Source: Planctomycetales bacterium (GTDB lineage Bacteria; 4484-113; JAFGCY01). Taken from it: a stretch of DNA of 32,000 bases. Made by a program: the position numbers and the translations under genes. The DNA lies in assembly GCA_022646745.1 (NCBI GenBank), contig CP060262.1:1200001-1232000 (forward strand), given 5' to 3'. Positions 4,735 to 26,951 of this stretch are shown piece by piece (positions within the stretch are counted from its first letter, which is position 1; each line of letters starts with the position of its first letter). The notes below the pieces were generated by a model. The model was not told where the DNA came from, made no database searches, and worked only from the letters and a program-made list of their open reading frames with translations.

Positions 4735-5328
4735 TCAGTGGACGATGCCGTTGAGCCAGGCCAGGCCCTTCATCAGGATCCAGGTGTTCACACCGTTGTG
4801 GCCGGCATAGGCATCGCACAGGCCCTGGATCGGGCGGCCATGGTTGTCACGCCCGTCCCAGTCCGCTGAGTACTCCTGGGTCTGGTAGGGATGCAGCACC
4901 AGATGGTCGGTGCCGAAGTGCTCGACCTCGCTGTCCGGCAGCAGCCAGCGCAGTACGCCGTTCTGGCGGATGCCGAACTTGTAGCGCCAGGTGTGCGGGT
5001 GGTAGTCGATGTGCCTCGTCGTGGCGCTGTTGTTGGTGACGCGCATCACCCAGCGGTAATGGCCGTTGTTGTCACCGAGCAGCTGGAACATGTAGTCGAT
5101 GCCATCCCAGTAGGCCGCGCCGGCCGTCAGCACATACATGCCGGGGATCCAGGCGGTCTCCTTGTCTGCCTCGGCGGGCTCGGCACCCATCACGAAGCCG
5201 TCCATGGCCACGAAGCCATCGTCAGGCATTTCAGACGGCAGCATGGTGGTGCCGGTGTTGCCAGCGCAGGCTGCAAGCTGCAGCGCGAGGGCCAGTAGTA
5301 ACAGAATCTGCGTGATCCGCTTTGCCAT
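4735..5328 (-). CDS. lipoprotein, Ig-like (BsuPI / FlgD-Ig-like) domain, tandem paralogue 1
   Basis: 197 aa. Signal plus lipobox MAKRITQILLLLALALQLAAC. SD AGGAGG lies 5 nt upstream. The core VTNNSATT..YKFGIRQNGVLRW..WDGRDNHGRPIQGL is reminiscent of BsuPI/FlgD-Ig beta-sandwich signatures (by eye). Confidence 0.75.
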   Translation of the reverse strand: MAKRITQILLLLALALQLAACAGNTGTTMLPSEMPDDGFVAMDGFVMGAEPAEADKETAWIPGMYVLTAGAAYWDGIDYMFQLLGDNNGHYRWVMRVTNNSATTRHIDYHPHTWRYKFGIRQNGVLRWLLPDSEVEHFGTDHLVLHPYQTQEYSADWDGRDNHGRPIQGLCDAYAGHNGVNTWILMKGLAWLNGIVH

Positions 5329-5570: not shown

Positions 5571-6155
5571 TTACTTGCCGTTCAGCCAGGCGATACCGGA
5601 CATGGTGTGGTTGCCACTGGCGGGACGATGGATGCACTTGGCGGTCACGAGACCCTGGATCTTGTGGCCGAAGTTGTCACGTCCGTCCCACGGCACGACC
5701 TGGGTCAGCGGGGAGTACGGGGCGAGGGTGATGTCGCCGGCGGGCATCGGGCTGACGTAACCATTGGAGGTCCAGCGCTTCACGCCATGCTGGTCGATCC
5801 GGAAGGTGAAGCGGCGCACATGGTTGTTGTAATGAATAGTCTTCGGGAAGGCACTGTTGTTGGTCATGATGAAGTGCCAGAGGTAATGACCCTCATTGTT
5901 TCCATAGAGGCGGAACTGGTAGTCAATGCCATCGATGTAATCGGCACCGGAGGTGAGCACGTAGTAACCGGGGATGTAGTTGGCCGCAGCCTTGTCAGCC
6001 TCGGTCAGCTCGCTGCCCAGGTCAACACTCTGGCCGGCAACAAGGGAGTTGTCAGCAGGAGTCATGTCCAGTGAGTTTTCAGCGTTGCCACCGCAGGCAG
6101 CCAGCGCGAGCGCCAGGGCCAGCAGTGTCATGATCATCGTTATCCGCTTGAGCAT
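5571..6155 (-). CDS. lipoprotein, Ig-like (BsuPI / FlgD-Ig-like) domain, tandem paralogue 2
   Basis: 194 aa. MLKRITMIMTLLALALALAAC lipobox. It is colinear with 4735..5328: IPGYYVLTSGADYIDGIDYQF, MTNNSAF, FTFRIDQHGVKRW, WDGRDNFGHKIQGL, AWLNG. SD GAGGTGG. Confidence 0.75.
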   Translation of the reverse strand: MLKRITMIMTLLALALALAACGGNAENSLDMTPADNSLVAGQSVDLGSELTEADKAAANYIPGYYVLTSGADYIDGIDYQFRLYGNNEGHYLWHFIMTNNSAFPKTIHYNNHVRRFTFRIDQHGVKRWTSNGYVSPMPAGDITLAPYSPLTQVVPWDGRDNFGHKIQGLVTAKCIHRPASGNHTMSGIAWLNGK

Positions 6156-7041: not shown

Positions 7042-8700
<1,659 letters not shown>

Positions 8701-9000: not shown

Positions 9001-9588
9001 ATGGACAAATCGATCCTCGACACTATCTTTTCACAGCTCGGTGATGAGCAGATGAAACAACTCGGCCAGCATGCCGGTGTGGACGAAGGCAAGGCCCGCC
9101 AGGGTCTGGAGGCCGTGATCCCCGTGCTGCTCGGTGCAATGGAGCGCAATGCCTCCGATGGCGGCGGTGCTGAGTCGCTGAAGAATGCACTGGAGAAGGA
9201 CCACGACGGTTCAATCCTCGACCAGCTCGGCGAGTACCTCGGCAACCCGGAGCAGGGCAAGGGCGGCGGCATCCTCAAGCATGTGCTGGGCGAGCGCCGC
9301 AGCAAGGTGGAGGAGCGGCTTGCGTCGCGTACTGAACTCGACCAGGGCCCACTTGGCAAGCTGATGGAGCTGGCAGCGCCGCTCGTGATGGGCGCGCTTG
9401 GCAAGCAGCAGAAGCAGCAGGGTGGCTTCAGCCTTGACAACTTAAGCGAGATGCTCGGCAAACAGCGCGAAGCCAGTGAGTCCGGCGGCGGACTGCTCGG
9501 AATGGCAGCGGACATGCTGGACAGCGATGGCGACGGGGATATCATGGATGACCTCGGTGGCCTGGCCGGCAAGCTTTTCGGACGCTAG
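9001..9588 (+). CDS. DUF937-family protein
   Basis: 195 aa. G/L/D-rich with LGKLMELAAPLVMGALGK and ILKHVLGERR segments and a terminal DDLGGLAGKLFGR, typical of DUF937 as I recall it. SD GGAGG is 8 nt upstream. Confidence 0.7.
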   Translation: MDKSILDTIFSQLGDEQMKQLGQHAGVDEGKARQGLEAVIPVLLGAMERNASDGGGAESLKNALEKDHDGSILDQLGEYLGNPEQGKGGGILKHVLGERRSKVEERLASRTELDQGPLGKLMELAAPLVMGALGKQQKQQGGFSLDNLSEMLGKQREASESGGGLLGMAADMLDSDGDGDIMDDLGGLAGKLFGR

Positions 9589-9592
9589 GCGC

Positions 9593-12500
9593 TCAATTCG
9601 AGGTTACGACATACAGGGTACCGCCACTGTAGGCCAACAGCCTGCCATCTGACAACGGAGGGCCGAAGCCCAGGCCAGTTGGGGAAGCTGCCAGTGTGTC
9701 AGACCAGAGCAGGTTCAGGGCCGCATCATAGGCCCGCAGCACTGCGTCGCCGGAGGGATCTTCACCCGCGGTGTAGATCCGGCTCTCAGCATCCACAAAG
9801 ATGATTTCCTCATCTTCAATGTCAATGAACTGCTCCAGCCCGTTGCTGCCGCTGCGGTACAGCCTGTAGTTGCCCGAGGGGGAATCATAGCCTGTCATAT
9901 ACGCCCGCAGGTTCCAGTCCTGCACCGGTGTGACGGCCTTCAGGCTGTCCTGCGGGATTGCCGTGACGTCAAGCACGCCGCCTGTGCGGGTCATTGTCAA
10001 CAGCTTGCCCGTCAGGAATGAATACCAGGCCAGCCGGCCATTGTCCATGTACAGTGGTGCATCCACCGCAAAGCGGAACTCATTGCCTGCGCTTGGCACC
10101 AGTGTCTTCCAGAGCAGTTCGCCATCCATTCTGAAGCTCGACAGGGAACCCTCCTCGCAGTAGAGCATGCCGTCCAGCCCGACCGTTGCCAGCACTGTAA
10201 TCTCGCCATACTCCCGCAGCTTGAGTCCGGACGTGGAGTAATTGGCAAGGCAGGCATCTGCCGTCAGCACGGAGCCGTTCGGTGCGATTGCCAGGTCGGC
10301 GTAATCATGGTTGTCAAGCTGCTGCTGCCAGATCCGCTGGCCGCTGCTGTCCAGTGCATCCAGCCGCCTGCCGGGCAGCAGCGCATAGACGTTGTCATTG
10401 TAGCCACAGGCTGCCGTGGACAGCTGCAGCGCGTCAGAGCCATACTGCCATAGCAGCTGCCCCTGCGGACTGAGGCGGCGCAGCCGGCCACCGGCCACGA
10501 GCAGGATGTCACCATCCGGTGCGACCAGCGCGGATGTGATTGCCAGCCCGCCGGTGTCATGCAGCATTGCCAGGCTGGCTCCGGGGCCTGGTCCGCCGTG
10601 GCTGCTGCGCCGTGTGCGCTGCGGATCATGGAATTCGCTTGGCCAGCACTCCCCGGCCCGGCCGGTGGCGCTATCACTCCAGAACAGGCCGGGCTGCCCC
10701 TCATAGATCCCTTTCAGGCGGTACTCATAGACTGAATCCGCATCAAAGGGCGGCGAGAGCGGGTTGCCATTTCCGTGCAGGAAGAAGTCGGTGGCCGGCA
10801 GGTCGGCAACCTGGGTCCAGTCCGCCGGGCCCTGTCCCTCCAGGCAGCGGTACTGCAGGCGGTAGCCATCCAGCCGCGGGATAGCGTTCCAGTACACCGC
10901 CACCTGGTTGTTGTAGTAAGCATCCGTGGCCTGCACGTCGTCAATGTCAATCGAGAACACCTCAATGTCGAGCGAGCAGCTGTCCTGCCTGCCGGCGCTG
11001 TCCTGCACGATCAGGTTTATGGTGTTGACACCGAGGTCCGCCGGCCCGAAGGTATGCTCCACGAAGGGTTCCGTGGTGGTCTGGTCGCCAAAGCCGTCGC
11101 CATCCCAGTCCCACTTGTAGGCGGCGATCCCGGCGGCGGCAATGCTGGCCGAGGCATCGAACTGCACCGGCCGCAGCGGTGGCACTGCCGACAGGCTGGC
11201 ACTGAGGATGGCAGAGGGCTGCGGTTCCTCGCCGTCCTCCAGGCAGAACAGTTCACCATGGTCATTGGAGAAGTACAGCAGGCCATGGCGGTCCATCGAG
11301 ATCGACTTGCGCACGGGATGCACGGCGTTGAATGACCACAGCAGCACACCGGAATGGTGGAAGGCGTAGACCCGCCCATCCGAGGAGCCGATGTAGATCA
11401 CTCCGTTGCCACTGACAAGCGGGGCGGACTCCACCGGGCCGCCGGTCAGGTATGACCAGTTGATGTCACCTTCCGGGCTGACACTGTAGACCCGGCCATC
11501 CAGGCAACCGAAGATGATGTCCAGTTCGTCCGTCAGTGCGACGGAGACATTGATCGCATCCGGGAACTGCAGCTCCCAGAGCGGTTCGCCGAAGATGTCG
11601 AGGCGGGTCAGCTTGCCGTTATCGCTGCCATAGACGATTGAATCGTCAGGCAGGATCGTTGCCGAGGAGAAGATCCGGCCGCCGGTATGGTGCTTCCAGG
11701 CCAGTTCACCGCGGGTATTGAGCTTGATCACGGAACCCTGCAGGGTCGGCACATAGACATCGCCGTAGGTTGTCAGGGATGGAGTGGCACTGATGCCCTC
11801 GCCGGCATTGAATTGCCAGATGAGCTTGCCGAAATGGTCCAGCTTGTAGACCTGGTGGTCCAGGTTGCCAAGGTAGACATTGTCCTCGGCGTCGCAGATC
11901 GGCGGGCTGATGATCTCACCGTTCGTGGGGAACTGCCACTCCAGTTTGCCGAAGCGGTCCAGGCAGTACAGCCGGCTGTCATAGCAGCCGACGAACAGCT
12001 TGCCATTGTGGGCAAGGCAAGGTGTGCTGTCCAGCCGGCCCTCGGCGCTGAACTCGCCGTTGATGTTACCCTCGTCGTCAATCGCGAAGAACTTCGCGAA
12101 CTCCGTCCCGACGTACATGTTGCCAACGGAGTCGATCGAGATTGAAGAGGTCAGCCCGCCGGCCATTTCCAGCTTCCAGCGCAGCGACTTGTTGAGCGGT
12201 CCGGGAATTGCCGTACGCTGGGTCTGGCTGCTGTCAAAGCCGTAGTGCGGCCACTGCGGCTGGCTGAAGCGGTAACTGGCCGCTCCGTTGGCATCACCAT
12301 CCGTGAAGCGGAACCAGAAAATGTCGTAGTTGTCCGCCGGGGCAATGTGCCTGAACAGCAGGCGTCCACCGCTGATTGCCGTGCTGAGCGGGACGGTGGC
12401 GATTTCCACCGCGCCGGGCCCATCAGGCTGCTGTGGGTCGAGCGGGAAGTCGTCGAAGGACTGACTGGCGAACAGCCGGGTGCCGAGGATGCGGCGGCCA

Positions 12501-12976
12501 TAGTTCAGCCCGATCGGGGTGACGTCCGCCAGGTTGATTTCGCCGTTGCCATCGCCGTCAATCACGGCCTGGATGGAGAGGTAGTCAAACTGGCCGCTTT
12601 CGCCGAAGTGGCTGGCCAGCGGAACCAGGTCGGCTGCATTCACCTCACCGTTCTGGTCGTAGTCCCCCGGGGCGTCGTAGTACCACTGGAAAGCGCCGTC
12701 CACATAGTTCAGGTTGCGCAGCCGCGGATCCGCAGCAGCTGCTGCGCTGCGCTGCGTATCGCTGATGCTGAGCACACGTTCCAGCTCCGCCTGCAGCATT
12801 GCCAGCAGCGCGTGGTCTGGGCCTGGCTCAGTCAGGGGCTGGTTGCCCGGCGAGGTTGACGTGATGTTCCCATTTCCCGGGGCAGGCACCAGCCGGGCCT
12901 GGCCGTCCGATCCAGAGCTGCAGCCGGCCAGCACCAGCAGCAGTATCAGCATCCCCAGTTTCCAGCCGCAATGCAT
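9593..12976 (-). CDS. giant lipoprotein: N-terminal dockerin repeats, Ig-like region, PQQ/BamB-like beta-propeller, PKD, FN3-like, second propeller
   Basis: 1127 aa. Lipobox LLLVLAGC. SD GGGGAGGA. Repeated ~40-aa units: FGKLEWQFPTNGEI, FGKLIWQFNAGEGI, RGELAWKHHTGGRI, EGDINWSYLTGGPV, SGVLLWSFNAV. PKD-like segment YKWDWDGDGFGD...LIVQDSAGR. Confidence 0.85.
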   Translation of the reverse strand: MHCGWKLGMLILLLVLAGCSSGSDGQARLVPAPGNGNITSTSPGNQPLTEPGPDHALLAMLQAELERVLSISDTQRSAAAAADPRLRNLNYVDGAFQWYYDAPGDYDQNGEVNAADLVPLASHFGESGQFDYLSIQAVIDGDGNGEINLADVTPIGLNYGRRILGTRLFASQSFDDFPLDPQQPDGPGAVEIATVPLSTAISGGRLLFRHIAPADNYDIFWFRFTDGDANGAASYRFSQPQWPHYGFDSSQTQRTAIPGPLNKSLRWKLEMAGGLTSSISIDSVGNMYVGTEFAKFFAIDDEGNINGEFSAEGRLDSTPCLAHNGKLFVGCYDSRLYCLDRFGKLEWQFPTNGEIISPPICDAEDNVYLGNLDHQVYKLDHFGKLIWQFNAGEGISATPSLTTYGDVYVPTLQGSVIKLNTRGELAWKHHTGGRIFSSATILPDDSIVYGSDNGKLTRLDIFGEPLWELQFPDAINVSVALTDELDIIFGCLDGRVYSVSPEGDINWSYLTGGPVESAPLVSGNGVIYIGSSDGRVYAFHHSGVLLWSFNAVHPVRKSISMDRHGLLYFSNDHGELFCLEDGEEPQPSAILSASLSAVPPLRPVQFDASASIAAAGIAAYKWDWDGDGFGDQTTTEPFVEHTFGPADLGVNTINLIVQDSAGRQDSCSLDIEVFSIDIDDVQATDAYYNNQVAVYWNAIPRLDGYRLQYRCLEGQGPADWTQVADLPATDFFLHGNGNPLSPPFDADSVYEYRLKGIYEGQPGLFWSDSATGRAGECWPSEFHDPQRTRRSSHGGPGPGASLAMLHDTGGLAITSALVAPDGDILLVAGGRLRRLSPQGQLLWQYGSDALQLSTAACGYNDNVYALLPGRRLDALDSSGQRIWQQQLDNHDYADLAIAPNGSVLTADACLANYSTSGLKLREYGEITVLATVGLDGMLYCEEGSLSSFRMDGELLWKTLVPSAGNEFRFAVDAPLYMDNGRLAWYSFLTGKLLTMTRTGGVLDVTAIPQDSLKAVTPVQDWNLRAYMTGYDSPSGNYRLYRSGSNGLEQFIDIEDEEIIFVDAESRIYTAGEDPSGDAVLRAYDAALNLLWSDTLAASPTGLGFGPPLSDGRLLAYSGGTLYVVTSN
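12497..12664 (-). other. dockerin-type duplicated Ca-binding (F-hand) module within 9593..12976
   Basis: Residues ~105-160: DYDQNGEVNAADLVPLASHFG and DGDGNGEINLADVTPIGLNYG. Both fit DxDxNGxxxxxD plus a hydrophobic helix. Confidence 0.6.
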
Positions 12977-13099
12977 CGTTTTCCTCCCCTTCAGCCCTGC
13001 ACAGCGATGTTAACAGTTCGGGGAGCGGGACGGGGTTGTCACATGGTGGCAAGTTCCGGGGAACACTTGGAGTAGCCGATGCGGCCTGTGCTGATCCTT

Positions 13100-13612
13100 C
13101 TACTCGCCCGTTGCCACGATGTAGGGTGTGTCGCAGTGCGGGCAGACCGCCTTCAGCGAGCTGCCTGCGTAAAGCTGGCCGCTGAGCTTCATCTCCGCGA
13201 GGCGGGTGACCAGTACGCCATACAGGGTGAACACGTCGCCGACGCTGCGGGCCGAAACCACCGTGCGGGCCACCCACTCCGGCATGCCGATGTCGTCACT
13301 GTCCAGTTCCAGCATGTAGCTGACATTGTCACTGTCCCCCGGCCGCCGGCTGAGCCGCAGGCCCCGCACCCGGTTGAAGCTGACATAGGCATGGCGCCGG
13401 GCGGAAATGCTGCCGGCCTTGCTCATGCCGGCCACGACCTTGATCAGGCGCATGTCGGTGAGCGTGATGCCCTCACCCTTGCTGGTGTGCACTTCGATGA
13501 TGATGTCCTCGTCGGGCCTCAGGCATTCATTCACTCCGGCCCCGAGTCCGCCGGGCAGCTGGCTGGCTTGCATGCAAGGAATATAGCAGCGGGGAGGCGC
13601 TGGTTTCAGCAT
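13100..13612 (-). CDS. hypothetical cytosolic protein (170 aa; 157 aa from the alternative start at 13573), possibly bacterial PH-like
   Basis: High GC3 and no signal peptide. The segment DIIIEVHTSKGEGITLTDMRLIKV resembles bPH/GRAM-like domains (weak, by eye). Cys pairs CYIPC (N-terminal) and CPHC (C-terminal). The alternative ATG at 13573 is preceded by TATATT plus 6 nt. Confidence 0.55.
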   Translation of the reverse strand: MLKPAPPRCYIPCMQASQLPGGLGAGVNECLRPDEDIIIEVHTSKGEGITLTDMRLIKVVAGMSKAGSISARRHAYVSFNRVRGLRLSRRPGDSDNVSYMLELDSDDIGMPEWVARTVVSARSVGDVFTLYGVLVTRLAEMKLSGQLYAGSSLKAVCPHCDTPYIVATGE

Positions 13613-13620
13613 GCTGCCAA

Positions 13621-15303
13621 TCAGTATGTGATCCAGCTGTCCTGGCCGGCATGGATTGTCCGGTCCTGGCCGTCAATCTCCACTCCGATCTGCCAGTCCA
13701 GAACCAATAAGGCCGGCCCGGCTTCGACAGCATTGCTGCCAGCAGCTGCGGCATTGCCCAGTGCGGAGAGGTAGTCCTCAACCCTCAGCTCAGCGTGCAT
13801 GTCATGGATCCTGGCATAGTTTCCCTCAGGCAGGCGGATGAAGCAGTCCACTGTGTTGCCAATGATGTATGTTCCTTCCTGCTCCCTGTAAGTGATCGCA
13901 AGATTCCTGGCGGAATTCTGACGTTGGGAAAGCTGGAAATCCGGCTGCGAGCTGATCACTATTCCCGGCCAGTCCGCATCCTGCATGTCCGCCAGGCGCG
14001 GGTCATCCCTGTCCAGCGACGCCAGGTCAGTGGCGGGGTCAGCAATCGTGCACTGCATGTTGGCGGAGAGGACTGCCAGGATGATGTCCAGCCGGTCCTG
14101 CACAATGCCGGAATCCCCATCCTGGTGGAGCGCGCCGAAATGCCAGACCCGGCGCCGGGCTGTATCCGGCTTGCTGTCCGCCCAATCATATGTGAAGTGC
14201 AGCATGTACTGCGTTTCACTCTCCAAGTAGCTGTCTCCATCGCCGGACGGATTCAGCACGACGGTCGGCAGGTTGAACTGTGCGGAATAGCGCATGTCCG
14301 GTTCCGCAGGCCGCAGCCGGTATTCCGCACCTGAGACCAGTGGCCAGCTGGATTCAGTCATGGGCTGGATTTCCTGCCAGGCTGCGTGCAGCAGGGACTC
14401 ATCCAGTTCCACCAGCACCGAATCCCCGGCAAGCTGGTACGGGCCATACTGCAGCATGTCGTATTCATTGCCAAGCCTGCCGAGCAGCATTGCGTCCGGC
14501 ACCGAAGCATCAACAAGCTCGTACCCTCCGAATTCATTCATGCGGAATTCAAACAGGTGGTCTGCATCCTTCGTGTAGCGCAGTCCTGCAAGCAGCTGCT
14601 TGATTCTCAGTGGGCTGGCTTGCGGACCGGCCGCAGGCGTTTGGGCATTTGCGGCTGACGAGATGAGGCTGACGAGGATTCGCTGGGGCGGACCCAGCTC
14701 GGCATTGCCGGAGTACCAGTCTGCGTATCGGTTGGCAAGGCCAGCACTGTCGCCGCCTAGGTAGATTGGCCCACTGGCAGTATCCAGCGTGGTGTTCCAG
14801 CCTACCGCAATTGCGGCACCACTGCCTTTCCAGTCTGGATCATCTATGCTGCCCTGCAGGAACAACTGGATATTCTGGGCAAAACGGTCGCCATCGTAGT
14901 ACCTTGCGTATGGGTCTTCAAGCGCCAGCAGGACTGTCAGGCTGGCCCCGGCAGCAGTGGACTTGAAGGATGCCGGAGCCATGGTCTGTCGCTCATACAG
15001 CACTCCTGAGGGGAGCAACTGGCTCCTGCCGCTGATCGGTGAGCTGCCATGGAACATGCTGTCCTCCAGCAGCAGGTAACGGCCCTCCAGCTGCCGGGAA
15101 AGCATTTCGTACGCATGCTCGTTGGAACTGTCCGGAACTGCCGCCGCACTGAATTCGCCAAGTGCAATTCCCGAGATGCTGCGTTCCTGTACTTCCCCCG
15201 CATTACCCGGCTGGTTGCCGGAGGAACCACACGATGCTGCCACCAGCATGGAGATAATGGCCAGCGCTACGAGCTGAAGATAGCGAATGAACAACCTGGG
15301 CAT
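13621..15303 (-). CDS. lipoprotein of unknown function (560 aa), possibly three copies of the module seen in 24350..26951
   Basis: Signal plus relaxed lipobox LVAASC. SD AGGGGGGG. No known domain recognised. The C-terminus LVLDWQIGVEIDGQDRTIHAGQDSWITY resembles the module ends in 25089..26294 and 26298..26951. Confidence 0.7.
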   Translation of the reverse strand: MPRLFIRYLQLVALAIISMLVAASCGSSGNQPGNAGEVQERSISGIALGEFSAAAVPDSSNEHAYEMLSRQLEGRYLLLEDSMFHGSSPISGRSQLLPSGVLYERQTMAPASFKSTAAGASLTVLLALEDPYARYYDGDRFAQNIQLFLQGSIDDPDWKGSGAAIAVGWNTTLDTASGPIYLGGDSAGLANRYADWYSGNAELGPPQRILVSLISSAANAQTPAAGPQASPLRIKQLLAGLRYTKDADHLFEFRMNEFGGYELVDASVPDAMLLGRLGNEYDMLQYGPYQLAGDSVLVELDESLLHAAWQEIQPMTESSWPLVSGAEYRLRPAEPDMRYSAQFNLPTVVLNPSGDGDSYLESETQYMLHFTYDWADSKPDTARRRVWHFGALHQDGDSGIVQDRLDIILAVLSANMQCTIADPATDLASLDRDDPRLADMQDADWPGIVISSQPDFQLSQRQNSARNLAITYREQEGTYIIGNTVDCFIRLPEGNYARIHDMHAELRVEDYLSALGNAAAAGSNAVEAGPALLVLDWQIGVEIDGQDRTIHAGQDSWITY

Positions 15304-15457
15304 GTTCCCCCCCTTCGCAAGATCATTACATGAATCCAGTTTCGTTGCACTGGAACATCATTGAATCAGTCCCGCCTTCCCTGGAACTGAACACTGGCAG
15401 AACAGACGGGAACCGTCAGGCTTTGTTTTGTTTGAATGGGTCCGGCCGCCTGCCCGG

Positions 15458-15463
15458 TATAAT
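15458..15463 (+). promoter_or_regulatory. -10 box (TATAAT) 9 nt upstream of the der ATG
   Basis: Perfect TATAAT with no SD before the ATG at 15473. The -35 is poor: the best candidate, TTGAAT, sits at a 20-nt spacing. Confidence 0.4.
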
Positions 15464-15472
15464 CTGCGCGCC

Positions 15473-17017
15473 ATGGGAACAGATGTACAGCGGCCGAAGG
15501 TGGCCCTGATCGGGCGGCCGAATGTCGGCAAGAGCACCCTCTTCAACCGCCTGGTCGGACAGAAGCTTGCGATCACGGACGACGTGCCGGGGATCACGCG
15601 CGACCGGCTGTACGGCGTCTGCGAGTGGGATGGCTATGAGTTCGAGGTGATCGACTGCGGCGGGCTGGGCGAGGAGAGCGAAGATCCGCTGTGGATGGCC
15701 GTCGCCGAGAACACCCTGCGCGCGATGGACGAAGCGGACGTGATCATCCTGATGGCAGATGCCCGTACCGGCATGACGCTGTCCGATGACGAAGTGCTGA
15801 AGGAGCTGCGCAAGCGCAGTGAGAAGCCGGTGATCGTGGCCGTCAACAAGGTGGAGCACGAGAACCATGAGATCCTCGCCAGCGAGTTCTGGAAGCTGGG
15901 CTACAAGGACATGGTATCGATCAGCGCACTGTCGCGCCGCCGGCTCGGTGAGATGCTGGACCTCGTGGTGGCGAAGCTGGACTGGTCGAAGTGGCCGGAA
16001 GCGACCCCGCAGTTCATGCAGCAGCGCTATGGCGATGCCCCGGACGAGGAGGAGCAGAAGGAGCTGGTGCGCGCCGAGCTGGAGGAGCAGGGCATCGAAC
16101 TGGACGAGGAGGACTACCCCTTCGCCTGGGTGCAACGCAGCGGGCCGCTGTTCGTGCCGGATGAAAGCTGGAAGAACGAACCGGTGCGGCTGGCCTTCGT
16201 CGGCCGCCAGAATGTCGGCAAGAGCAGCATCACGAATGCGCTGCTGGGCCGGCACCGTGCGCTGGTGAGCGACCTGGCCGGCACCACACGCGACCCGCTG
16301 TATGCGGAGTTCGAGTTCGAAGGCACGAAGTATGAGCTGATGGACACTGCCGGGATGAAGCGCATCACCCGGCTGAAGGAAGATGTCGACTACTACTCAA
16401 TGATTCGCGCCGAGAAGAGCCTGCGCACGAGCGAGGTCGGCATCCTCACCCTGGACGCCGAGGTCGGCGTGACTGAACAGGACAAGCGCGTGGCGCAGAA
16501 GATCGCGGACTTCTCACGTGCGATCGTGATCCTCGTCAACAAGCGCGACCTGATCCCCGAGGGCAAGGAAGCGCTCGAGCTGTACAGTGACTATGTGCGC
16601 CGGAACCTGCGCAAGCTGCCCTGGGCCGAGGTGGTCTACACCTGTGCGCTGGAGGGGCAGGTCAGCGGGCTGCCGGAACTGCTGGCGGCCGCCAACCGGG
16701 CGCGGGACAACTTCCACCGCCGGATTGACAACAATGCGCTGGCCACCGTGCTCGAGGAGACCGTGGCGCTCAACCCGCCACCGATCGTGAAGAACCGCGA
16801 GCTGCTGTTCTTCGACTTCCGCCAGATTGGCAACTGCCCGCCGGCCTTCCTCGTCGAGCTGAATGACAAGATGCTGATCCGCCAGGCCTACCGGCGCTTC
16901 ATCGAGAACACGATCCGGCGCAACTTCGACTTCCGCGGCACGCATATACATATGGTCTATTACCAGAAGCTCAGCAAGCGCGCGCGGCTGGCCCGGGCCA
17001 GCAAGAGCCGGCGCTAG
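15473..17017 (+). CDS. der: ribosome-associated GTPase Der (EngA)
   Basis: 514 aa from ATG 15473. It has two GTPase domains (GRPNVGKS / DCGG / NKVE, and GRQNVGKS / DTAG / NKRD), an acidic inter-domain linker and a KH-like C-terminus. The track start at 15428 is a TTG extension. Confidence 0.93.
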   Translation: MGTDVQRPKVALIGRPNVGKSTLFNRLVGQKLAITDDVPGITRDRLYGVCEWDGYEFEVIDCGGLGEESEDPLWMAVAENTLRAMDEADVIILMADARTGMTLSDDEVLKELRKRSEKPVIVAVNKVEHENHEILASEFWKLGYKDMVSISALSRRRLGEMLDLVVAKLDWSKWPEATPQFMQQRYGDAPDEEEQKELVRAELEEQGIELDEEDYPFAWVQRSGPLFVPDESWKNEPVRLAFVGRQNVGKSSITNALLGRHRALVSDLAGTTRDPLYAEFEFEGTKYELMDTAGMKRITRLKEDVDYYSMIRAEKSLRTSEVGILTLDAEVGVTEQDKRVAQKIADFSRAIVILVNKRDLIPEGKEALELYSDYVRRNLRKLPWAEVVYTCALEGQVSGLPELLAAANRARDNFHRRIDNNALATVLEETVALNPPPIVKNRELLFFDFRQIGNCPPAFLVELNDKMLIRQAYRRFIENTIRRNFDFRGTHIHMVYYQKLSKRARLARASKSRR

Positions 17018-17843: not shown

Positions 17844-20348
17844 TCAGTTGTAGATGATGCCGAAGTTGATGAAGTTCTCCGTGTTGTTCTGCCAGGCCAC
17901 CACCGGTCGGCCATCAGCTTCGCCAACGGCCAGCACGATCGGCGCCGCCGCATCGTAGCTTGTCAGGATGACCGGGTCACCCCAGGCGTTGCCATAACCA
18001 TCCAGCGCAGGCACGAAGATCAGGCGGGCGTGGTTGGTGTCCTCGTGGTAGACGAGGAAGGGCAGGCCGCCGGCCATGCCGAGCTTGACCTCTCCGTAGG
18101 ACTCGACCTTGGCCACCACGCGGGAGTTGACCCACTGGTTGATGTGCACATTGCGCATGTAGCGCGTGCGCAGCTCGAAGCCGTTGTTGACATTGACATA
18201 AGACGCAGCCAGTGAGCCGTTCGGGATGTCGATCGCGTTGAGCTTGTAGGAGTTGGTGGCATCCACGTCACCGCCCTGGTTGACGGAGCCCCAGGTGGTG
18301 CCATCCGCGTCGTCGCCGTCGCAGGAGCGCCAGCTGGCGGGCACGTCACTGGTGCGGATGAACACCGCGGTCGGGCGCTCGACGGTATTGAGCAGCACGG
18401 GCTGCAGGCCGGTGCCGACAGTGTTGTCCACCGTGACCGTGGCGTTCCATGCCGTGCCGTTCGCATTGCTGGCACGGGTGTACAGCATCGTGTTCGGCCC
18501 GCGGTGCAGGATCGCGGGGTTGCCGTTGATCACAGCCAGGTCGTTGATGCCGCCGGTGTCAAAGCCGGGGTTGTATTCAACCGGCGTGCCCCAGGCACTG
18601 CCATTGGCATCGGTGGCCCGTACGAACTTGCCGCGCAGGTTGCCGAAGTCGTAGAAGGCGATCGCCGGATTCCCATTGACAACTGCCATGCTCAGGCTGA
18701 AGGTGACCAGCGTCGTGTTGTAGATGACAACCGGGTTGTCCCAGCTCTCGCCGGCGCTGTCATCGGCGCGCAGGAAGTACGGTGTGCTGTTGAGCTGGTT
18801 TATGAAGGCGATCGAGGGATTGCCATTCACGGTCACCAGCTCGATGTTGCTGGAACCGCCGCTTTCGGCGATCGGGAAGAAATTCATGCCGCGCACGGTC
18901 ACACCGACGCTGGCAACGGTGCGGTCACCATCGTCATCAGTCACACGGATGCGGGCCGGGTAGTGGCCGGCCTTGTCATAGGCCCAGCTGGCTGAGGGGT
19001 TGGAGCCGCTGTCCAGGTCATAGACGTCGTCACCCTCGAAGTCCCACTCGTACTTGGCAACCAGGCCGTCCAGATCGATGCTGCTGCCGGCGTCGAAGTT
19101 CACTACCTGCCCGACGGCGACATTGTTGCTTGAGGCATTGATGTCCGCGAAGGGCGGCAGGTTGCCGATGTTGATCAGCACACTGAGGCCGCTTAGCGCG
19201 GTGTAGGTCCCACCGGCGTCGTAGCCATGCACACGGGTGCGCAGCACGCCGGCACTGTCCATCTCCATCTTGTATTCGGTGTCACTGGAGCCAGTCACCT
19301 CGAACACGCCGTCGCCATCGAAGTCGACGTCATACAGTTCAGCGCCGGAAACCGTGATACTCAGTTCCGAGCCGACCGGCAGCAGTGTGGTGGACGGTGT
19401 GACCGAGATCTGCTGCACGGTGTCGTCCTGGATGTCAGCCGTGATGATGCCGCTTGCGAACGGGCCATGGTTGCCATTGATGTCCACCGCGGCGACGCGG
19501 ATGTAATAGACATCCGGCGGCAGGGTCAGCAGGTGGCGGGTTGTTCCCTCAAGGTAGCCAATGTTCATCACCCCGGCTGCATCCGGATTGCTGAAGCTGT
19601 TCTTCGAATAGTAAATGGCATAGCCAGCCAGGTCACCATCGGCAACAGGATCCCAGGAGAGATCGATGCTGCTGCCGGTGATCGGACCGCCGATACCAGT
19701 CACCTCGCCTGGTGCATCGATGTCGCCGATCGCACGCTGGGCAAGGGCCAGGCTGACGAGGTCGATTTCCGAGCCGTCGAAGGTCAGCACTGCAACCCAG
19801 GCATTTCCGAGCCCGCTTATGTGGCTGGACTGCGGGTCAAGCAGGATGCGCACGTGGCTGTCGCTGAAAGGTCCGCTCCAGTCCCAGCGCCCGCTGCTGA
19901 AGTTTGCGGCAGCGGCGTAGTACTGCATTCCCGGCTGCAGGTTGGCATCGACGCTCAGTACGCCCGGCTCACTGCCGCCCATCGGGAAGCGGTGCAGGGT
20001 CCAGGCTGCCTGGTTCACGGCCGCAAGCAGGGTGGCGGCGGCGCCGTCCTTGCCAACCAGGCCGGAATCGTCAAAGAAGTCGCGTCCGGCCTGGAACTCG
20101 TCGTTGAGGGACAGGGCACTGGCCACCGCATTGCGCTGCGGGATCACGAAGCCATCGGCGTCGAGGCTCTCGCCGGGCTGCAACTGGTCCTCGGGGAACT
20201 GCGGCAAGGCTGAACTGTCCGCCTGTAGTGCGCCCAGAGCAGTCTGGTCATCCTGCTGCACTGGAAGCTGCGATGTGCCAGTCCCCCCGCCGCAGGAATT
20301 CAACAACAACAGGCACGCGCCCGTTATCGCAATCAGAAAGCGATACAT
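17844..20348 (-). CDS. lipoprotein: unknown N-terminal domain, FN3-like, Ig/PKD-like, PKD, 7-bladed beta-propeller (tandem paralogue 1)
   Basis: 834 aa. Lipobox LLLLNSC. SD AGGAGA. PKD segment YEWDFEGDD...RVTDDDGDR. About seven ~42-aa repeats around the NGNPAI motif (VNGNPSIAF, VNGNPAIAF, INGNPAIL...). Confidence 0.85.
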   Translation of the reverse strand: MYRFLIAITGACLLLLNSCGGGTGTSQLPVQQDDQTALGALQADSSALPQFPEDQLQPGESLDADGFVIPQRNAVASALSLNDEFQAGRDFFDDSGLVGKDGAAATLLAAVNQAAWTLHRFPMGGSEPGVLSVDANLQPGMQYYAAAANFSSGRWDWSGPFSDSHVRILLDPQSSHISGLGNAWVAVLTFDGSEIDLVSLALAQRAIGDIDAPGEVTGIGGPITGSSIDLSWDPVADGDLAGYAIYYSKNSFSNPDAAGVMNIGYLEGTTRHLLTLPPDVYYIRVAAVDINGNHGPFASGIITADIQDDTVQQISVTPSTTLLPVGSELSITVSGAELYDVDFDGDGVFEVTGSSDTEYKMEMDSAGVLRTRVHGYDAGGTYTALSGLSVLINIGNLPPFADINASSNNVAVGQVVNFDAGSSIDLDGLVAKYEWDFEGDDVYDLDSGSNPSASWAYDKAGHYPARIRVTDDDGDRTVASVGVTVRGMNFFPIAESGGSSNIELVTVNGNPSIAFINQLNSTPYFLRADDSAGESWDNPVVIYNTTLVTFSLSMAVVNGNPAIAFYDFGNLRGKFVRATDANGSAWGTPVEYNPGFDTGGINDLAVINGNPAILHRGPNTMLYTRASNANGTAWNATVTVDNTVGTGLQPVLLNTVERPTAVFIRTSDVPASWRSCDGDDADGTTWGSVNQGGDVDATNSYKLNAIDIPNGSLAASYVNVNNGFELRTRYMRNVHINQWVNSRVVAKVESYGEVKLGMAGGLPFLVYHEDTNHARLIFVPALDGYGNAWGDPVILTSYDAAAPIVLAVGEADGRPVVAWQNNTENFINFGIIYN

Positions 20349-20460: not shown

Positions 20461-22959
20461 TTACTTGTAGACAGTTCCGAGGACGATGAAGTTCTCGCCC
20501 TCCGCCTTGTAGGCGAATATCACCCGCTCATCAGTTCCCAGCACGGCAAGCTGCTCCACGTAGTCGGTGCCGTGTTCCAGCAGCACGACCTGTGGATCCC
20601 ACTCGTAGCCATATACATCCCGCGCGCCTACATAGATCAGGCGCTTGGGCCAGGTCGAGAAATCCTCATAGACGATGAAGGGCAGACCATTCATAATGCC
20701 GATTTTCGCAATTCGTGGAGTGCCACCCTGGCTGACGATGCGCGGCTCACCCCAGTAATCACTGGGCAAGGTTTCACTTAGGTAGGCAATCCGCAGCTGG
20801 TTGCTTGAATCAGTATCCGCCGTATAGCAGGCGAGGAATCCGGGACCAGTGGCCACCGAATCAAACCAGTTGCCATCATCAATCGTGTCGTCACCGGCGA
20901 TTACAGGTGCCTTCCAGGCAATACCGTCGGCATCATCGGCCTCCACCCCGTACCAGTTGAGCATCGGGGCAACCTGGAGGAAAGAGGCTGACGGACCTCC
21001 ATTCGTCGCATAGAGCTGGGGGGTATGCCCGCTCACTGGTGAATCATAGAGTTTCACGCCTGGATTCCAGGCGGTGCCGGTGGCATTGCTGCTGCGGTAG
21101 TACCAGAGTTCATCCTGCGAATTGTTCTGTGTCAGGACAGCAGGATTGCCATTGATGATTTCCATGTCAATTGCATTGCCAAGTCCTGCGGCGCCGATCT
21201 GTATCGGGGTGCCCCATGTACTGCCATCAGCATCAGAGGCGCGCATGTAGAGCAGGCGGTCCAGGCCTGAGCTGCGGAATGCGACAGCAGGGTTGCCGTC
21301 GACATCCTGTACGCGCAGGGCTGCGCCGACATCCGAGCTGTCGTAGATCTTGGTCGGGTTTGGCCAGTCCTCGCCGCGTTCGTCCATCGCGCGCATGTAC
21401 CACAGCCGGGAATTCGCACCATTGATGAAGAACAGTGCCGGCTTTCCATCAACTGATTGAAGCTGCAGCTTGCTGTTGCTGCCCGTTTCGGCGATGAGGA
21501 TGCTGCTGGCACCGCGCACTGTCAGGGTGGCAAAGGCGGAGGAAGAGTCTCCGTCCTCGTCTGTCACCCGCATTTCGACGTCGTAGTAGCCGGGCTCGGT
21601 GTAAGTGTGGCTCGTGAAGGGTGTGCTGCCCGTGTCATCATCGAAGCTGCCATCGCCGTCAAAGTCCCACTCAAACGTGTCAATCACGCCATCAAGGTCC
21701 TGGCTGTTCACGGCACTCATGCGGATGCTCTGGCCGGGGGCGATGCTTGCATGCTCAAGCTCAAGTTCCGCGAAGGGCGGCAGGTTGGCAATTGTCACCA
21801 GCACACTGAGGCCGCCCAGTGCGACATGGCTGCCGTCCGCATCATGTCCTCGCACGCGCGCCCGCAGGATGCCGGCCCCGCTGGCCTGCATCATGTACTG
21901 GCTGTCACTGCCATCGCTGATCTCGAAGCTACCATCGCCATCGAAGTCGATGTCGTACAGCTCCGCTCCTGAAACATTGAGTTCCAGCTGCTCACCGATC
22001 TCGCTGAAGCTTGATCCGACGGTGACGACCAGGCCAGCCGCAGGCTGCCCGGTGACCTCAACCTGCTCCAGACCGCTGGGCGAACCTTCATTGCCGTTGA
22101 CATCCAGTGCACTGACAGCGATGAAGTAGCTGCCAGGCAACAGGTCGAGCTGGTGCCGTGTGGTTCCCTCAAGGTAGGGCAGCCGATTTACGCCTGCGGA
22201 ATGCGGGTTGATGAAGCTGCGATCGGACCAGTAGATTGCATAGCCGGCAAGATCACCTTCGGCGTTGTCATTCCAGACCAGTTCGGCCCCGCCGGAAACA
22301 GCCGTGGCATTCAGGCCGGTAACTGCATCCGGAGCCTGGGCATCGCCGCCACTTGCTGGACTGACGGATACGCCGACGACATCGAAGCTGACATCGTCAT
22401 AACCCAGCACGGCGGTCCAGGCATTGCCCAGCCCGCTCAGGTGGCTGTCCTGCGGGTCAAGCGGAATGCGCACGTGGCTGTCCATGAAGGGCCCGTGCCA
22501 CTCCCAGCGCGAGCTGTCGAAATTGGCAACACCGACATAGTAGCTGGCCGCATTCACACCCGGCAGCAGGTTCACATCGACACTGACAACCCCGGGCTGC
22601 TGTCCGCCCAGCGTGAAGCGGTGGACCAGCCAGGCACTGCCGCCGGGAGCGGCCTGCATCGTGGCGGCCACGCCGTTCTTGTCCGCCAGCCCGCTGGACT
22701 CCATGAAGTCCACGCCCGGCAGGAACTCATCAGCGGAGCCGATCGCACTGGCAACGGCATTGCGGTTCACCAACACATTTCCGGAAGAGTCGATGTCCTC
22801 GCCCGGCAGCAGGCTGTCAACGGGGAAAGCCGGCTGGCTGCCAGCGAGTGGAGCATCAGTCGCTTCAGGAGGCGTATTGCCGGCTGCGGTCTGGCCGCCG
22901 CCGCAGGATATCCCAAGCATTGCCAGGCAGATGACGGGAAGAAACAGAAGTCTGCGCAT
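20461..22959 (-). CDS. lipoprotein: unknown N-terminal domain, FN3-like, Ig/PKD-like, PKD, beta-propeller (tandem paralogue 2)
   Basis: 832 aa from ATG 22959 (MRRLLFLPVICLAMLGISC). It is colinear with 17844..20348: NAVASA, HRF..GG..PGV.SVD.NL, DSHVRI.LDP, DLAGYAIY, SGAELYD.DFDGDG, EWDF.GD, RVTD.DGD. The track ORF start at 23268 is an extension that overlaps arsC. Confidence 0.85.
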   Translation of the reverse strand: MRRLLFLPVICLAMLGISCGGGQTAAGNTPPEATDAPLAGSQPAFPVDSLLPGEDIDSSGNVLVNRNAVASAIGSADEFLPGVDFMESSGLADKNGVAATMQAAPGGSAWLVHRFTLGGQQPGVVSVDVNLLPGVNAASYYVGVANFDSSRWEWHGPFMDSHVRIPLDPQDSHLSGLGNAWTAVLGYDDVSFDVVGVSVSPASGGDAQAPDAVTGLNATAVSGGAELVWNDNAEGDLAGYAIYWSDRSFINPHSAGVNRLPYLEGTTRHQLDLLPGSYFIAVSALDVNGNEGSPSGLEQVEVTGQPAAGLVVTVGSSFSEIGEQLELNVSGAELYDIDFDGDGSFEISDGSDSQYMMQASGAGILRARVRGHDADGSHVALGGLSVLVTIANLPPFAELELEHASIAPGQSIRMSAVNSQDLDGVIDTFEWDFDGDGSFDDDTGSTPFTSHTYTEPGYYDVEMRVTDEDGDSSSAFATLTVRGASSILIAETGSNSKLQLQSVDGKPALFFINGANSRLWYMRAMDERGEDWPNPTKIYDSSDVGAALRVQDVDGNPAVAFRSSGLDRLLYMRASDADGSTWGTPIQIGAAGLGNAIDMEIINGNPAVLTQNNSQDELWYYRSSNATGTAWNPGVKLYDSPVSGHTPQLYATNGGPSASFLQVAPMLNWYGVEADDADGIAWKAPVIAGDDTIDDGNWFDSVATGPGFLACYTADTDSSNQLRIAYLSETLPSDYWGEPRIVSQGGTPRIAKIGIMNGLPFIVYEDFSTWPKRLIYVGARDVYGYEWDPQVVLLEHGTDYVEQLAVLGTDERVIFAYKAEGENFIVLGTVYK

Positions 22960-24349: not shown

Positions 24350-25003
24350 ATGTTCCTGACGATGCGGGATTCCCGCCAGATCCCCAGGTTTTCGCTGGGA
24401 ATATTGCTAAGCCTTGTTGCGTTGCTGCTGGGAGGCTGCGGTTCCGGTGGACCGAGGAGTCTGTACATCGGAGACGTGGTGCTCAGTGGCAGCGCCATCA
24501 CTCCCGACCCGGACACCGCCGTCACGCACCCCGAGCTGGTAGATCTGCTTAATCGCGTCAGTGCGCAGCGTAACTTCCACCTGGGCAGCGTTGACTTCAC
24601 CGAAGGCCAGTTTGAGCCGGATTATGGTGCGATGCAGCTGCGGGACAGCTGGACCAAAAGCCAGGTGCGCAAGGGTGGCCAGGTCTGGCGCGCTGGTGTG
24701 AAGGATGCCACGCCCGAAAAACTCAGCGGCGAAGGCAGCATGTACACGGCCGGGCCCTACATGAAGCTGACGCATGTGATTGAAAGCGATGACCCGACGC
24801 TATTCAACCTGATCCTGCGCGGGCAGTTCAATCGCACCGAAGTGCAGGAGCATCTCGATGAGATCAACCCGCGCATGGTGAAGAACGCCCCACTGGAAAG
24901 CGATAGTTTCCTGGCTAGCTTCATCCTGACCGGGGCCTTGGATGGCAAGCCCTTCACCGTGGAGTTCGTGCAGACAATGCGGGCGGAGTTCGGCAAGTTC
25001 TGA
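24350..25003 (+). CDS. lipoprotein, unrecognised module family (single module, divergent)
   Basis: 217 aa. Lipobox ALLLGGC. TAACAT (24338..24343) lies 6 nt upstream of the ATG, and there is no SD. The C-terminus is FILTGALDGKPFTVEFVQ. Confidence 0.7.
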   Translation: MFLTMRDSRQIPRFSLGILLSLVALLLGGCGSGGPRSLYIGDVVLSGSAITPDPDTAVTHPELVDLLNRVSAQRNFHLGSVDFTEGQFEPDYGAMQLRDSWTKSQVRKGGQVWRAGVKDATPEKLSGEGSMYTAGPYMKLTHVIESDDPTLFNLILRGQFNRTEVQEHLDEINPRMVKNAPLESDSFLASFILTGALDGKPFTVEFVQTMRAEFGKF

Positions 25004-26297: not shown

Positions 26298-26951
26298 ATG
26301 CTGCGGGCACTTCGCTCAATCCTGCTGGCAATGTTCCTGCTGTCAGGCTGCCTGCCGCTGCCGATTGCGATCCAGCCCTATTCCAGTCCGATAACTGATG
26401 GGCTGGCGCTTGGAGAAGCTGAGATCAGGGAATCCAGCGGTATCAATGCGGAGGATGCGCAGGCAATCGTGGATGAGGTGCTCGAGCATGGCTTCATCCC
26501 CTTGCTTTACTCCGGCAATGAGCAGAGCAAGGACAAGCTGAAGTTCCACATCGGGGAAACCATGCATCCGCCGGGGGACACGCCGGGTAGTTTCCATGCC
26601 CGCATTGACTCAATCGTTGGTGATACGGTTGCCATTTCGATGCTGCTGCCTGATTCACGGCCAGAGCAGGACCAGCCGTCCGGACCAGGGCGTTTGCAGT
26701 GCCGGGCCGGTTTCAGCAACACGCGCTGGAATGCAGGACGCAATTCCTCGTGGCAATGGAATGCAGCGAGCTGGAGTGACCAGTCACGGCTGATCATGCT
26801 TGACTGGGAGATATCCGGAAATGACAACGGACAGGCCTGGAGCCTGACTGCCAGTCAGCCGGCGCTGCGATTGAGCTTCCACCACTGGCACTGGGGATAT
26901 GGCTGGTTCGCGGGTGAATCACCGCTTGGTGCCTTCCGGCCCGCATACTGA
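26298..26951 (+). CDS. lipoprotein, unrecognised module family (single module)
   Basis: 217 aa. Lipobox MFLLSGC. The ATG lies 3 nt after the upstream stop. GINAEDAQAIVDEVLEHGFIP parallels GIDLIDAQAQVQAALSEGSIP of 25089..26294, and IMLDWEISGNDNGQAWSLTASQPAL parallels its module ends. Confidence 0.7.
   Translation: MLRALRSILLAMFLLSGCLPLPIAIQPYSSPITDGLALGEAEIRESSGINAEDAQAIVDEVLEHGFIPLLYSGNEQSKDKLKFHIGETMHPPGDTPGSFHARIDSIVGDTVAISMLLPDSRPEQDQPSGPGRLQCRAGFSNTRWNAGRNSSWQWNAASWSDQSRLIMLDWEISGNDNGQAWSLTASQPALRLSFHHWHWGYGWFAGESPLGAFRPAY

Follow-up and report, generated by a model that had tools for sequence, protein, structure and literature searches.

A membrane-proximal dockerin cassette and cohesin-like domains in a family of predicted lipoproteins from an uncultured bacterial lineage

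We investigated a 32,000-nucleotide stretch of DNA (hereafter the window), which covers positions 1,200,001 to 1,232,000 of the forward strand of contig CP060262.1 in the Planctomycetales bacterium assembly GCA_022646745.1, and in particular one of its genes, gene A, which encodes a predicted lipoprotein of 1127 amino acids (aa). The protein carries a conserved N-terminal cassette with a dockerin-type module close to its predicted lipid anchor, the cassette recurs in a large family of lipoproteins, and many of its paralogs hold a cohesin-like domain directly before the dockerin. We put the chances at about even that these dockerins bind the cohesin-like domains of paralogs, which would cross-link the lipoproteins into a membrane-tethered network displaying binding domains.

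An initial annotation of the window had described three same-strand open reading frames (ORFs), here genes A, B and C, and all three were found on the minus strand with exact coordinates. The layout of gene A is given below, where A1 denotes a profile built from 26 N-terminal cassettes, AF2 an AlphaFold2 model, pLDDT its predicted local distance difference test score, and MAG a metagenome-assembled genome.

9593..12976, minus strand: gene A, 1127-aa lipoprotein with an N-terminal dockerin cassette and cargo (ORF; Pfam; ortholog in a sister MAG, 79% identical)
12920..12976, minus strand: signal peptide with lipobox L-A-G-C (Cys19), read from the sequence
12764..12814, minus strand: conserved amphipathic helix, aa 55-71, consensus W..L..EL.RVL (alignment A1; AF2 pLDDT >89)
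12680..12709, minus strand: beta-hairpin preceding the dockerin, aa 90-99, consensus L.W.Y.N.G (alignment A1; AF2)
12497..12667, minus strand: dockerin-type module, aa 104-160, a symmetric pair of loop-helix units with 12-residue Ca2+ loops
12278..12484, minus strand: FN3/Ig-like beta-sandwich closing the conserved cassette, aa 165-233 (AF2 pLDDT >90)
11222..12244, minus strand: PQQ/BamB-like beta-propeller 1, aa ~245-585 (PF13570, 2.3e-51; PF13360, 4.4e-31)
10976..11185, minus strand: PKD domain, aa 598-667 (PF18911, E 1e-6, 29.1 bits, cut-off 27)
10592..10969, minus strand: region of ~125 aa, aa ~670-795, earlier described as FN3-like (no family match)
9596..10591, minus strand: PQQ-like beta-propeller 2, aa ~796-1127 (PQQ_2, 2.7e-8 when scanned alone)

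The ATG start codon at 12976 is preceded by a Shine-Dalgarno-like GGAGG, 7 nt on its 5' side. The N-terminus, MHCGWKLGMLILLLVLAG-C, carries the lipobox noted at the outset, in canonical form (full signal MHCGWKLG-MLILLLVLAG-C); it agrees with the definition of a lipoprotein used here, a signal peptide ending in [LVI][ASTVI][GAS]C, and judged by this sequence gene A is a lipoprotein. The Pfam scan of the full protein returned Beta-prop_ACSF4 (PF13570) at 2.3e-51, PQQ_2 (PF13360) at 4.4e-31 over aa ~286-580 and PKD_4 at 1e-6, in support of the first propeller and the PKD domain named in the initial annotation. The second propeller, also proposed there, is real because the last 332 aa match PQQ_2 on their own, above the cut-off, and align to propeller 1 at 2e-8 by BLASTP. 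Other parts of the earlier domain layout had to be revised. The putative FN3-like domain at aa ~670-795 found no Pfam or PDB sequence match, and the supposed linker of ~85 aa is not plain, containing the conserved helix and the beta-hairpin. Where an Ig-like region had been read, AF2 gives a confident beta-sandwich (aa 165-233), with the motif 'YWVRP.DG..G..S' conserved in alignment A2, but the FN3 matches found by Foldseek were weak (E >= 0.027). The view of gene A as a lipid-anchored protein with a membrane-proximal dockerin-type module and no catalytic domain held up: its cargo is non-catalytic and comprises two PQQ/BamB-like propellers, a PKD domain and one unassigned domain. Besides the sister-MAG ortholog, the gene A sequence itself was also present on JAGRNS010000015.

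A homolog search covering 5.8 billion proteins found that similarity to gene A is mostly confined to the N-terminus, with unrelated C-terminal regions. The common layout of the homologs is a lipobox, ~50-200 aa, the pattern '...L.W.Y.N.GDYDQNGEVN..DLTPLG.HFG ... DGDGNGEINLADVTPIG.NFG', and then the unrelated C-terminus. An exhaustive hidden Markov model (HMM) search of 1.84 billion cluster representatives gave 3316 family representatives at E<=1e-3, 1890 at 1e-10 and 493 at 1e-30. For nearly all of the 150 best matches, the start of the module falls at aa ~45-95 or ~155-205. A lipobox-type signal was present in 168 of 197 fetched family proteins, most of the others looking like truncated gene calls. 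Across the family the cassette is strongly conserved and the cargo divergent. The suggestion that gene A belongs to an uncharacterised assembly system was supported. Neither the cassette nor the cohesin-like domain is covered by an NCBIfam or other curated model, and we found no description of N-terminal dockerin lipoproteins of this kind in the literature, including that on Planctomycetes, UBP7 and candidate phyla.

Type I dockerins are recognised by two tandem repeats of ~22 residues, in which a Ca2+ loop of 12 residues (with ligands at 1, 3, 5, 9 and 12) precedes a helix. Gene A has both loop-helix units of Dockerin_1, DYDQNGEVNAAD and DGDGNGEINLAD, and the two dockerin-type repeats reported by the initial annotation are present as DYDQNGEVNAADL (aa 105) and DGDGNGEINLADV (aa 140), mapping to 12497..12664. 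Across 179 modules the two repeats are near-symmetric, with D or N at ligand positions 1, 3, 5 and 12 in 98-100% of cases in both repeats. N occupies position 9 in 69% and 81% of modules, T or S in a further 7-8%, and G or A in most of the remainder, and a Pro is conserved at position 15 of each repeat. Searched against the PDB, profile A1 placed solved dockerins at the top (8x39 at 8e-6; the Clostridium thermocellum GH9 dockerin 4fl4 at 1.5e-5, with both repeats spanned; then 4wi0, 2y3n and 2ccl), and calmodulin ranked after them at 4e-4. The best Dockerin_1 score in the family, 54.5 bits (E 1.3e-14), belongs to a paralog from the same organism as gene A; matches were obtained at E<=1 for 22 of 26 cassettes and at E<=1e-4 for 16 of 62 full-length members. 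An AF2 model of gene A aa 45-250, built on a 34-sequence alignment (pLDDT 89.9, predicted template modelling score, pTM, 0.83), places helices of the dockerin segment at aa 114-122, 135-139 and 149-157.

The initial annotation saw no cohesin in the window, and we agree: no window ORF, genes C, D, E, G, H and I among them, produced a credible match to the cohesin-like profile. Such domains were found in the paralogs. About half of them, at least two in the same organism as gene A, have a domain of ~125 aa directly before the dockerin. These are the proteins whose cassette starts at ~155-205, the additional ~125 aa lying between the lipobox and the hairpin-dockerin. In these members, which we abbreviate Coh-Doc (cohesin-like domain, then dockerin), the domain replaces the helix that gene A and other dockerin-only members have, and the A1 match begins at profile position ~18-20. 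Its consensus is '..LKALY..L.YD....P.....LG....L.L.V...PG.V..GQVL..P....GFSGdGVLA...F'. All three PDB matches of profile A3 were cohesins (3l8q at 0.0065, 5g5d and 3fnk), as were five of the seven matches of profile A4 (6kg8 at 0.013, 6kgc, 3l8q, 5g5d and 4uyp). Pfam Cohesin (PF00963) matched 8 of 18 members, 0.0027 being the best value, and the domain of the paralog P0075 scored 22.1 bits (E 1.9e-4) for a cut-off of 24.1. The AF2 model of the domain is all-beta (pLDDT 91.5) and has the flattened jelly-roll beta-sandwich of cohesins: Foldseek ranks 1-18 went exclusively to cohesins, both type I and type II, at probabilities of 0.99-1.00, and C. perfringens cohesin-like modules followed at ranks 24-25. 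Each of these lines of evidence is modest, and together they agree in suggesting a cohesin fold.

One member has a cohesin-like domain with no dockerin (Coh-only). It is a 264-aa lipoprotein consisting of an N-terminal Ig-like part and the cohesin-like domain, and is conserved in three genomes. In loci L011 and L026 its gene sits upstream of a Coh-Doc gene at a distance of ~1.2 kb, and in L043 at about 0.7 kb. We regard this lipoprotein as a candidate membrane receptor for the proteins that carry only a dockerin (Doc-only).

L011 7461..8252: Coh-only 264-aa lipoprotein
L026 7455..8246: Coh-only 264-aa lipoprotein
L043 4291..5211: Coh-only 264-aa lipoprotein

The architectures observed are Doc-only (gene A), Coh-Doc, Doc-Doc, Coh-Doc-Doc, (Coh-Doc)x2 and Coh-only, and some proteins, such as P0071, P0075 and P0114, have an internal second copy of the module far from the N-terminus. 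One tandem locus, L079, contains two Coh-Doc genes, two Doc-Doc genes, a single-dockerin gene and a partial ORF with a dockerin match at its edge; it comes from samples that also hold a C gene identical to that of the window. The cluster of another cohesin-bearing paralog, P0043, includes a protein of the same organism as gene A. It had been considered that canonical cohesin scaffoldins elsewhere in the genome might account for the dockerins. Domains of apparent cohesin fold do occur in the same organism, but fused to the lipobox-dockerin cassette, not as multi-cohesin scaffoldins: in the fetched proteins and loci, an incomplete sample, a protein has at most two cohesin-like domains, each with its own dockerin. 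Among 62 members, the cargo includes PKD domains (16/62) and PQQ-like propellers (11/62), along with other propellers and Ig domains. Enzymatic cargo is scarce in this sample (one S8 peptidase and one CHAP domain), and none of the 62 has a glycoside hydrolase domain, so dockerins borne on glycoside hydrolases or other carbohydrate-active enzymes (CAZymes), as in cellulosomes, were not found.

The family is lineage-restricted. A pattern search of one genome per species across 185,579 species returned 217 matches, and 191 of them proved to be relatives. The top 80 sit in 12 related MAGs, often in tandem arrays. These MAGs, among them HKST-UBA01/03, AC1.30 and Ww346, carry the labels 'bacterium', 'Planctomycetales bacterium' or 'UBP7'. 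In the fetched loci we counted at least 26 family genes for HKST-UBA03, the sister genome, and at least 28 for AC1.30. The lineage was found in activated sludge and saline sediments. The UBP7 label was given by the submitters of the HKST MAGs, and the description of UBP7/Bimafiota (0.8-1.4 Mb, 36-53% GC) does not match a 4.1-Mb genome of ~62% GC; the phylum of the lineage is uncertain.

On our preferred reading, the acylated N-terminal Cys would anchor each family protein on the membrane. The shared cassette has a fixed order (lipobox signal, then helix or cohesin-fold domain, hairpin, two-repeat Ca2+ dockerin and FN3-like sandwich), and a variable cargo comes after it. The membrane-proximal dockerin would then engage, in a Ca2+-dependent manner, the putative cohesin-fold domains of paralogous lipoproteins, with Coh-Doc, Coh-only, Doc-Doc and (Coh-Doc)x2 proteins as the cohesin or adaptor forms, and the outcome would be a cellulosome-like, non-cellulolytic network showing PKD, propeller and Ig binding domains. 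That the modules act between molecules instead of within one, at which membrane leaflet or surface they do so, and what biological role they have, are all points that we infer.

Several observations weigh against this reading. The Dockerin_1 model (PF00404) scores gene A at only 15.3 bits (E 0.024, aa 103-152), below the gathering threshold of 22.9, and the cassette scanned alone reaches 18.4 bits, still under it. The initial annotation had foreseen that the dockerin HMM might not be significant; this is true of gene A alone but not of its family, given the paralog score above, and by sequence the dockerin assignment is weak for gene A alone and solid for the family. Foldseek returned no significant match for the whole cassette model, only weak FN3 matches and, for the dockerin part, one weak match to an X module-dockerin (X-Doc) structure, 5m0y_B at rank 30, so the dockerin call rests on the sequence profiles and the motif. 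For the cohesin model, Foldseek E-values were modest (2e-3 to 3e-2), with template modelling scores of 0.46-0.54. Paralogs strongly conserve the residues expected at a cohesin interface, which could mean internal packing and not a common partner. All of the partners are lipid-anchored themselves, so docking is not needed for attachment to the cell, and in Proteobacteria, BamB-type lipoproteins are periplasmic. Finally, in a metagenome search seeded with the cohesin-like domain (alignment A5), the domain was directly followed by a dockerin in 12 of 12 loci, an adjacency that fits intramolecular pairing equally well.

The main alternative is structural, and we regard it as possible though somewhat unlikely: the dockerin would be a Ca2+-stiffened stalk that holds the cargo off the membrane, and there would be no network, since each cohesin-like domain (in Coh-Doc members) or helix (in members like gene A) would pack on its own dockerin. 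The immediate N-terminal placement of the cohesin-like domain, seen in the 12 loci above, was repeated in 35 of 35 fetched proteins. Helix and cohesin are mutually exclusive at one position, AF2 treats helix, hairpin, dockerin and sandwich as a single body (the pTM of 0.83 given above), the dockerin surface positions are strongly conserved across paralogs, and the packing of the X module in type II X-Doc dyads offers a parallel. Against a purely intramolecular role stand the Coh-only lipoprotein, which exists without any dockerin, the Doc-Doc and Coh-Doc-Doc proteins, in which dockerins outnumber cohesins, and the near-perfect symmetry of the repeats. Repeat symmetry is a feature tied to dual-mode cohesin binding in type I dockerins. 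Taken together, these unpaired architectures and the symmetric repeats favour binding in trans.

A second alternative, which we consider improbable, is that the cassette is a sorting tag for a lineage-specific machinery for lipoprotein export or surface display, with the Ca2+ module as the recognised fold. The cassette is strictly N-terminal, follows the lipobox directly on unrelated cargo and is highly conserved next to that divergent cargo, a logic comparable to that of the Bacteroidota lipoprotein export signal or the C-terminal domain of the type IX secretion system (T9SS). However, a folded three-part cassette of ~190 aa far exceeds known lipoprotein sorting signals, the second module copies in P0071, P0075 and P0114 are internal, and no candidate machinery was seen in the neighbourhoods examined.

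In the textbook view, Gram-positive cellulolytic bacteria assemble their extracellular enzyme machines by pairing cohesins with dockerins, and synthetic biology makes wide use of such pairs. The modules described here resemble the clostridial type I pairs (PF00404/PF00963; 1ohz, 2ccl, 4fl4) in having two symmetric Ca2+ loop-helix repeats and a putative partner domain that is a beta-sandwich of the nine-strand type; these pairs also provide the best profile matches for both modules and the best fold match for the cohesin-like domain. In contrast to type I, the dockerin lies at the N-terminus beside a lipid anchor instead of at the C-terminus of a secreted enzyme, the cargo is PKD, propeller or Ig instead of glycoside hydrolase in the 62 members, no protein has more than two cohesin-like domains, each fused to its own dockerin, and Pro is conserved at position 15. 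In the proteins sampled, the cassette system lacks two defining features of a cellulosome, the multi-cohesin scaffoldin and the CAZyme cargo. The organism is presumably diderm, because LptF/G is encoded on a related contig. Non-cellulosomal cohesin- and dockerin-like modules were reportedly surveyed by Peer et al. in 2009 (FEMS Microbiol Lett), a paper that both PMC8542988 and PMC6461901 cite. Like such modules (C. perfringens 2jh2 and 2vo8), those of the present family occur on proteins unrelated to cellulose breakdown, but they differ in the lipobox, the fixed Coh-Doc order, the conserved hairpin and FN3-like flank, and a very large expansion of paralogs within one uncultured lineage.

Two in silico proposals are also related, the 'planctosome' of freshwater Planctomycetes (Nemodlikiaceae) (PMC6461901) and a cellulosome-like complex of Ca. 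Stygibacter (Cloacimonadota) (PMC8542988), in that both are hypothesised non-cellulolytic cohesin-dockerin assemblies of Gram-negative uncultured bacteria. The planctosome 'adaptor' even combines a dockerin just after the signal peptide with a cohesin in one protein (PMC6461901). The cargo of these systems is peptidase or glycoside hydrolase (PMC6461901, PMC8542988), whereas here it is mostly non-catalytic. Their anchors are an LTD in the planctosome (PMC6461901) and a multi-cohesin scaffoldin with a CTD anchor in Stygibacter (PMC8542988), whereas here every component would have a lipid anchor, and the cohesin sits ahead of the dockerin. Type II X-Doc dyads (5m0y, 2b59) share with the cassette an Ig-like domain packed on the dockerin as one rigid unit, and 5m0y_B was the only dockerin-containing structure among the listed Foldseek matches of the cassette model; here the sandwich comes after the dockerin, not before it, and the match was weak (E 0.55, 55 columns).

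The initial annotation had instead grouped genes C, B and A into a three-gene surface-assembly unit, in which the dockerin of A would dock on a lipoprotein such as C. We find this very improbable. The two other genes of the proposed unit, and the genes between B and the DUF937 gene in two related loci, are as follows.

13100..13573, minus strand: gene B, 157-aa cytosolic protein with a C-terminal CxxC (longest ORF to 13612, 170 aa)
13621..15303, minus strand: gene C, 560-aa lipoprotein found in two species only, with no known or cohesin-like domain
L004 7973..9151 and 9191..9664: genes of the interval between gene B and DUF937
L083 8697..9515 and 9557..10027: genes of the interval between gene B and DUF937

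The three genes do lie close together on one strand, and the sister species keeps their order (Der - C - B - A - DUF937 - GroEL). In that species (HKST-UBA03), two extra lipoprotein genes, of 392 aa and 157 aa, separate B from A. In AC1.30 the arrangement is Der - B - ... - DUF937 - GroEL, C and A are both missing, and from B to DUF937 there are a 272-aa protein and a lipoprotein of 156 aa that is 96% identical, while in the window that interval holds gene A only. Because gene content differs among relatives in this way, we interpret the Der-DUF937 interval as a variable lipoprotein island around a conserved backbone. Gene B is kept independently in at least 8 relatives and appears in an unrelated context in a more distant one (L084). 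Gene C has a single homolog among the 5.8 billion proteins, from the sister species at 81% identity, and does not match the cohesin-like profile. Relatives of gene A and other cassette carriers occur in many unrelated genomic contexts, and the context of P0003 showed no synteny. These synteny data largely refute the three-gene model: B stands alone, and genes B and C are neighbours of A, not components.

Gene C lacks a recognisable domain, as had been stated, with no Pfam or NCBIfam match, and its lipobox (...ISMLVAAS-C) has a non-canonical Ala at -3. Gene B likewise had no Pfam or NCBIfam match. Its lack of a signal peptide stood, but the 8-nt gap to gene C holds only for the longest ORF; all gene calls and 8 of 8 homologs start at Met14, which gives a protein of 157 aa, the length of every homolog, and a gap of 47 nt. 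In tblastn, the similarity to L083 and L004 takes in the 13 additional codons at the start of the longer ORF (13574..13612, minus strand), which may mark either the true start of gene B or a conserved upstream element. A promoter and terminator scan of 9400..15500 gave nothing informative. We also observed that GroEL (7048..8700, plus strand) is 99% identical between the window, L004 and L083, for 60-95% in flanking proteins, which reflects either unusually strong conservation or, possibly, recent exchange.

BamB (YfgL) is an outer-membrane lipoprotein with an 8-bladed PQQ-like propeller, and gene A resembles it in its lipobox and PQQ_2-type propeller; it differs in having two propellers, a PKD domain and the dockerin cassette, and is three times longer. 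That gene A is an enzyme (a PQQ-dependent dehydrogenase) or the organism's BamB is scarcely credible: PQQ_2 and BamB-type models give significant partial matches, but the scores miss the curated cut-offs for the PQQ-dependent alcohol dehydrogenase model TIGR03075 (31.8 bits for 480) and for the BamB models TIGR03300 (88.5 for 285.2 bits) and PRK11138 (51.7 for 423), and the two-propeller architecture of 1127 aa is unlike BamB (~390 aa).

The 32-kb window contains at least 10 lipoprotein genes, among them a second member of the gene A family.

26961..29906, minus strand: gene F, second lipobox-dockerin-PQQ lipoprotein of the gene A family (A1 profile, E 1.8e-48)
24350..25003, plus strand: gene G, small lipoprotein, convergent with F
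~25089..26294, plus strand: gene H, small lipoprotein, convergent with F
26298..26951, plus strand: gene I, small lipoprotein, convergent with F

Gene F has the same cassette and PQQ cargo as gene A, with dockerin loops at ~29379..29546 and the lipobox ...LALAG-C. Its longest ORF begins at a TTG at 30083, and the Met at ~29906 (MRNTDTVVIVTSLALFASLALAGC) is the likely start. Genes H and I are related to each other (E 5e-9), and gene C has a weak similarity to H in a C-terminal motif, 'L.W.v.G....sQ.sW' (E 2e-4, 77 aa). Both dockerin-PQQ giants, A and F, therefore adjoin a lipoprotein of the C/H type, a point in favour of the three-gene model, as H and I share the C-like motif weakly. A search of the ~1.3 Mb of related loci that were fetched turned up no homologs of G, H or I.

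Genes D (17844..20348, minus strand) and E (20461..22959, minus strand) are tandem paralogous lipoproteins, each with fn3 and PKD domains and a C-terminal repeat region ('VNGNPAIAF...') that has no family match; they have no dockerin cassette, and their position is conserved in HKST-UBA03 and AC1.30. A further tandem pair of paralogous lipoproteins of ~195 aa, with no Pfam match, lies between TGT and GroES (4735..5328 and 5571..6155, both minus strand), where GC falls to 0.53-0.59; the counterparts in AC1.30 are 365 nt apart.

Non-cellulosomal cohesin and dockerin modules, and in silico cellulosome-like assemblies, were already known. What is new here is the N-terminal position of the modules by a lipid anchor, the fixed Coh-Doc order, their occurrence on mostly non-enzymatic proteins, and their presence in dozens of genes per genome. 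The cassette and the cohesin-like domain are missed by Pfam thresholds and by every NCBIfam model, and because they escape these models, hundreds of family proteins are annotated merely as 'PKD domain-containing' or 'PQQ-binding-like beta-propeller repeat protein'. A bolder proposal, which we hold to be rather doubtful, is that the lineage builds its outermost protein layer from at least 25 paralogous lipoproteins per genome, which would assemble by themselves using a cohesin-dockerin code of their own. Doc-only proteins such as A and F would be the cargo, joined by Coh-Doc, Doc-Doc and Coh-only adaptors into a lipid-anchored, Ca2+-dependent, non-catalytic 'cellulosome' that serves as a surface for adhesion or capture, or as an analogue of an S-layer. 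If the modules do bind, the family would be a source of orthogonal Coh-Doc pairs and a natural example of cohesin-dockerin interaction organising a membrane-tethered protein network instead of delivering enzymes to a scaffold.

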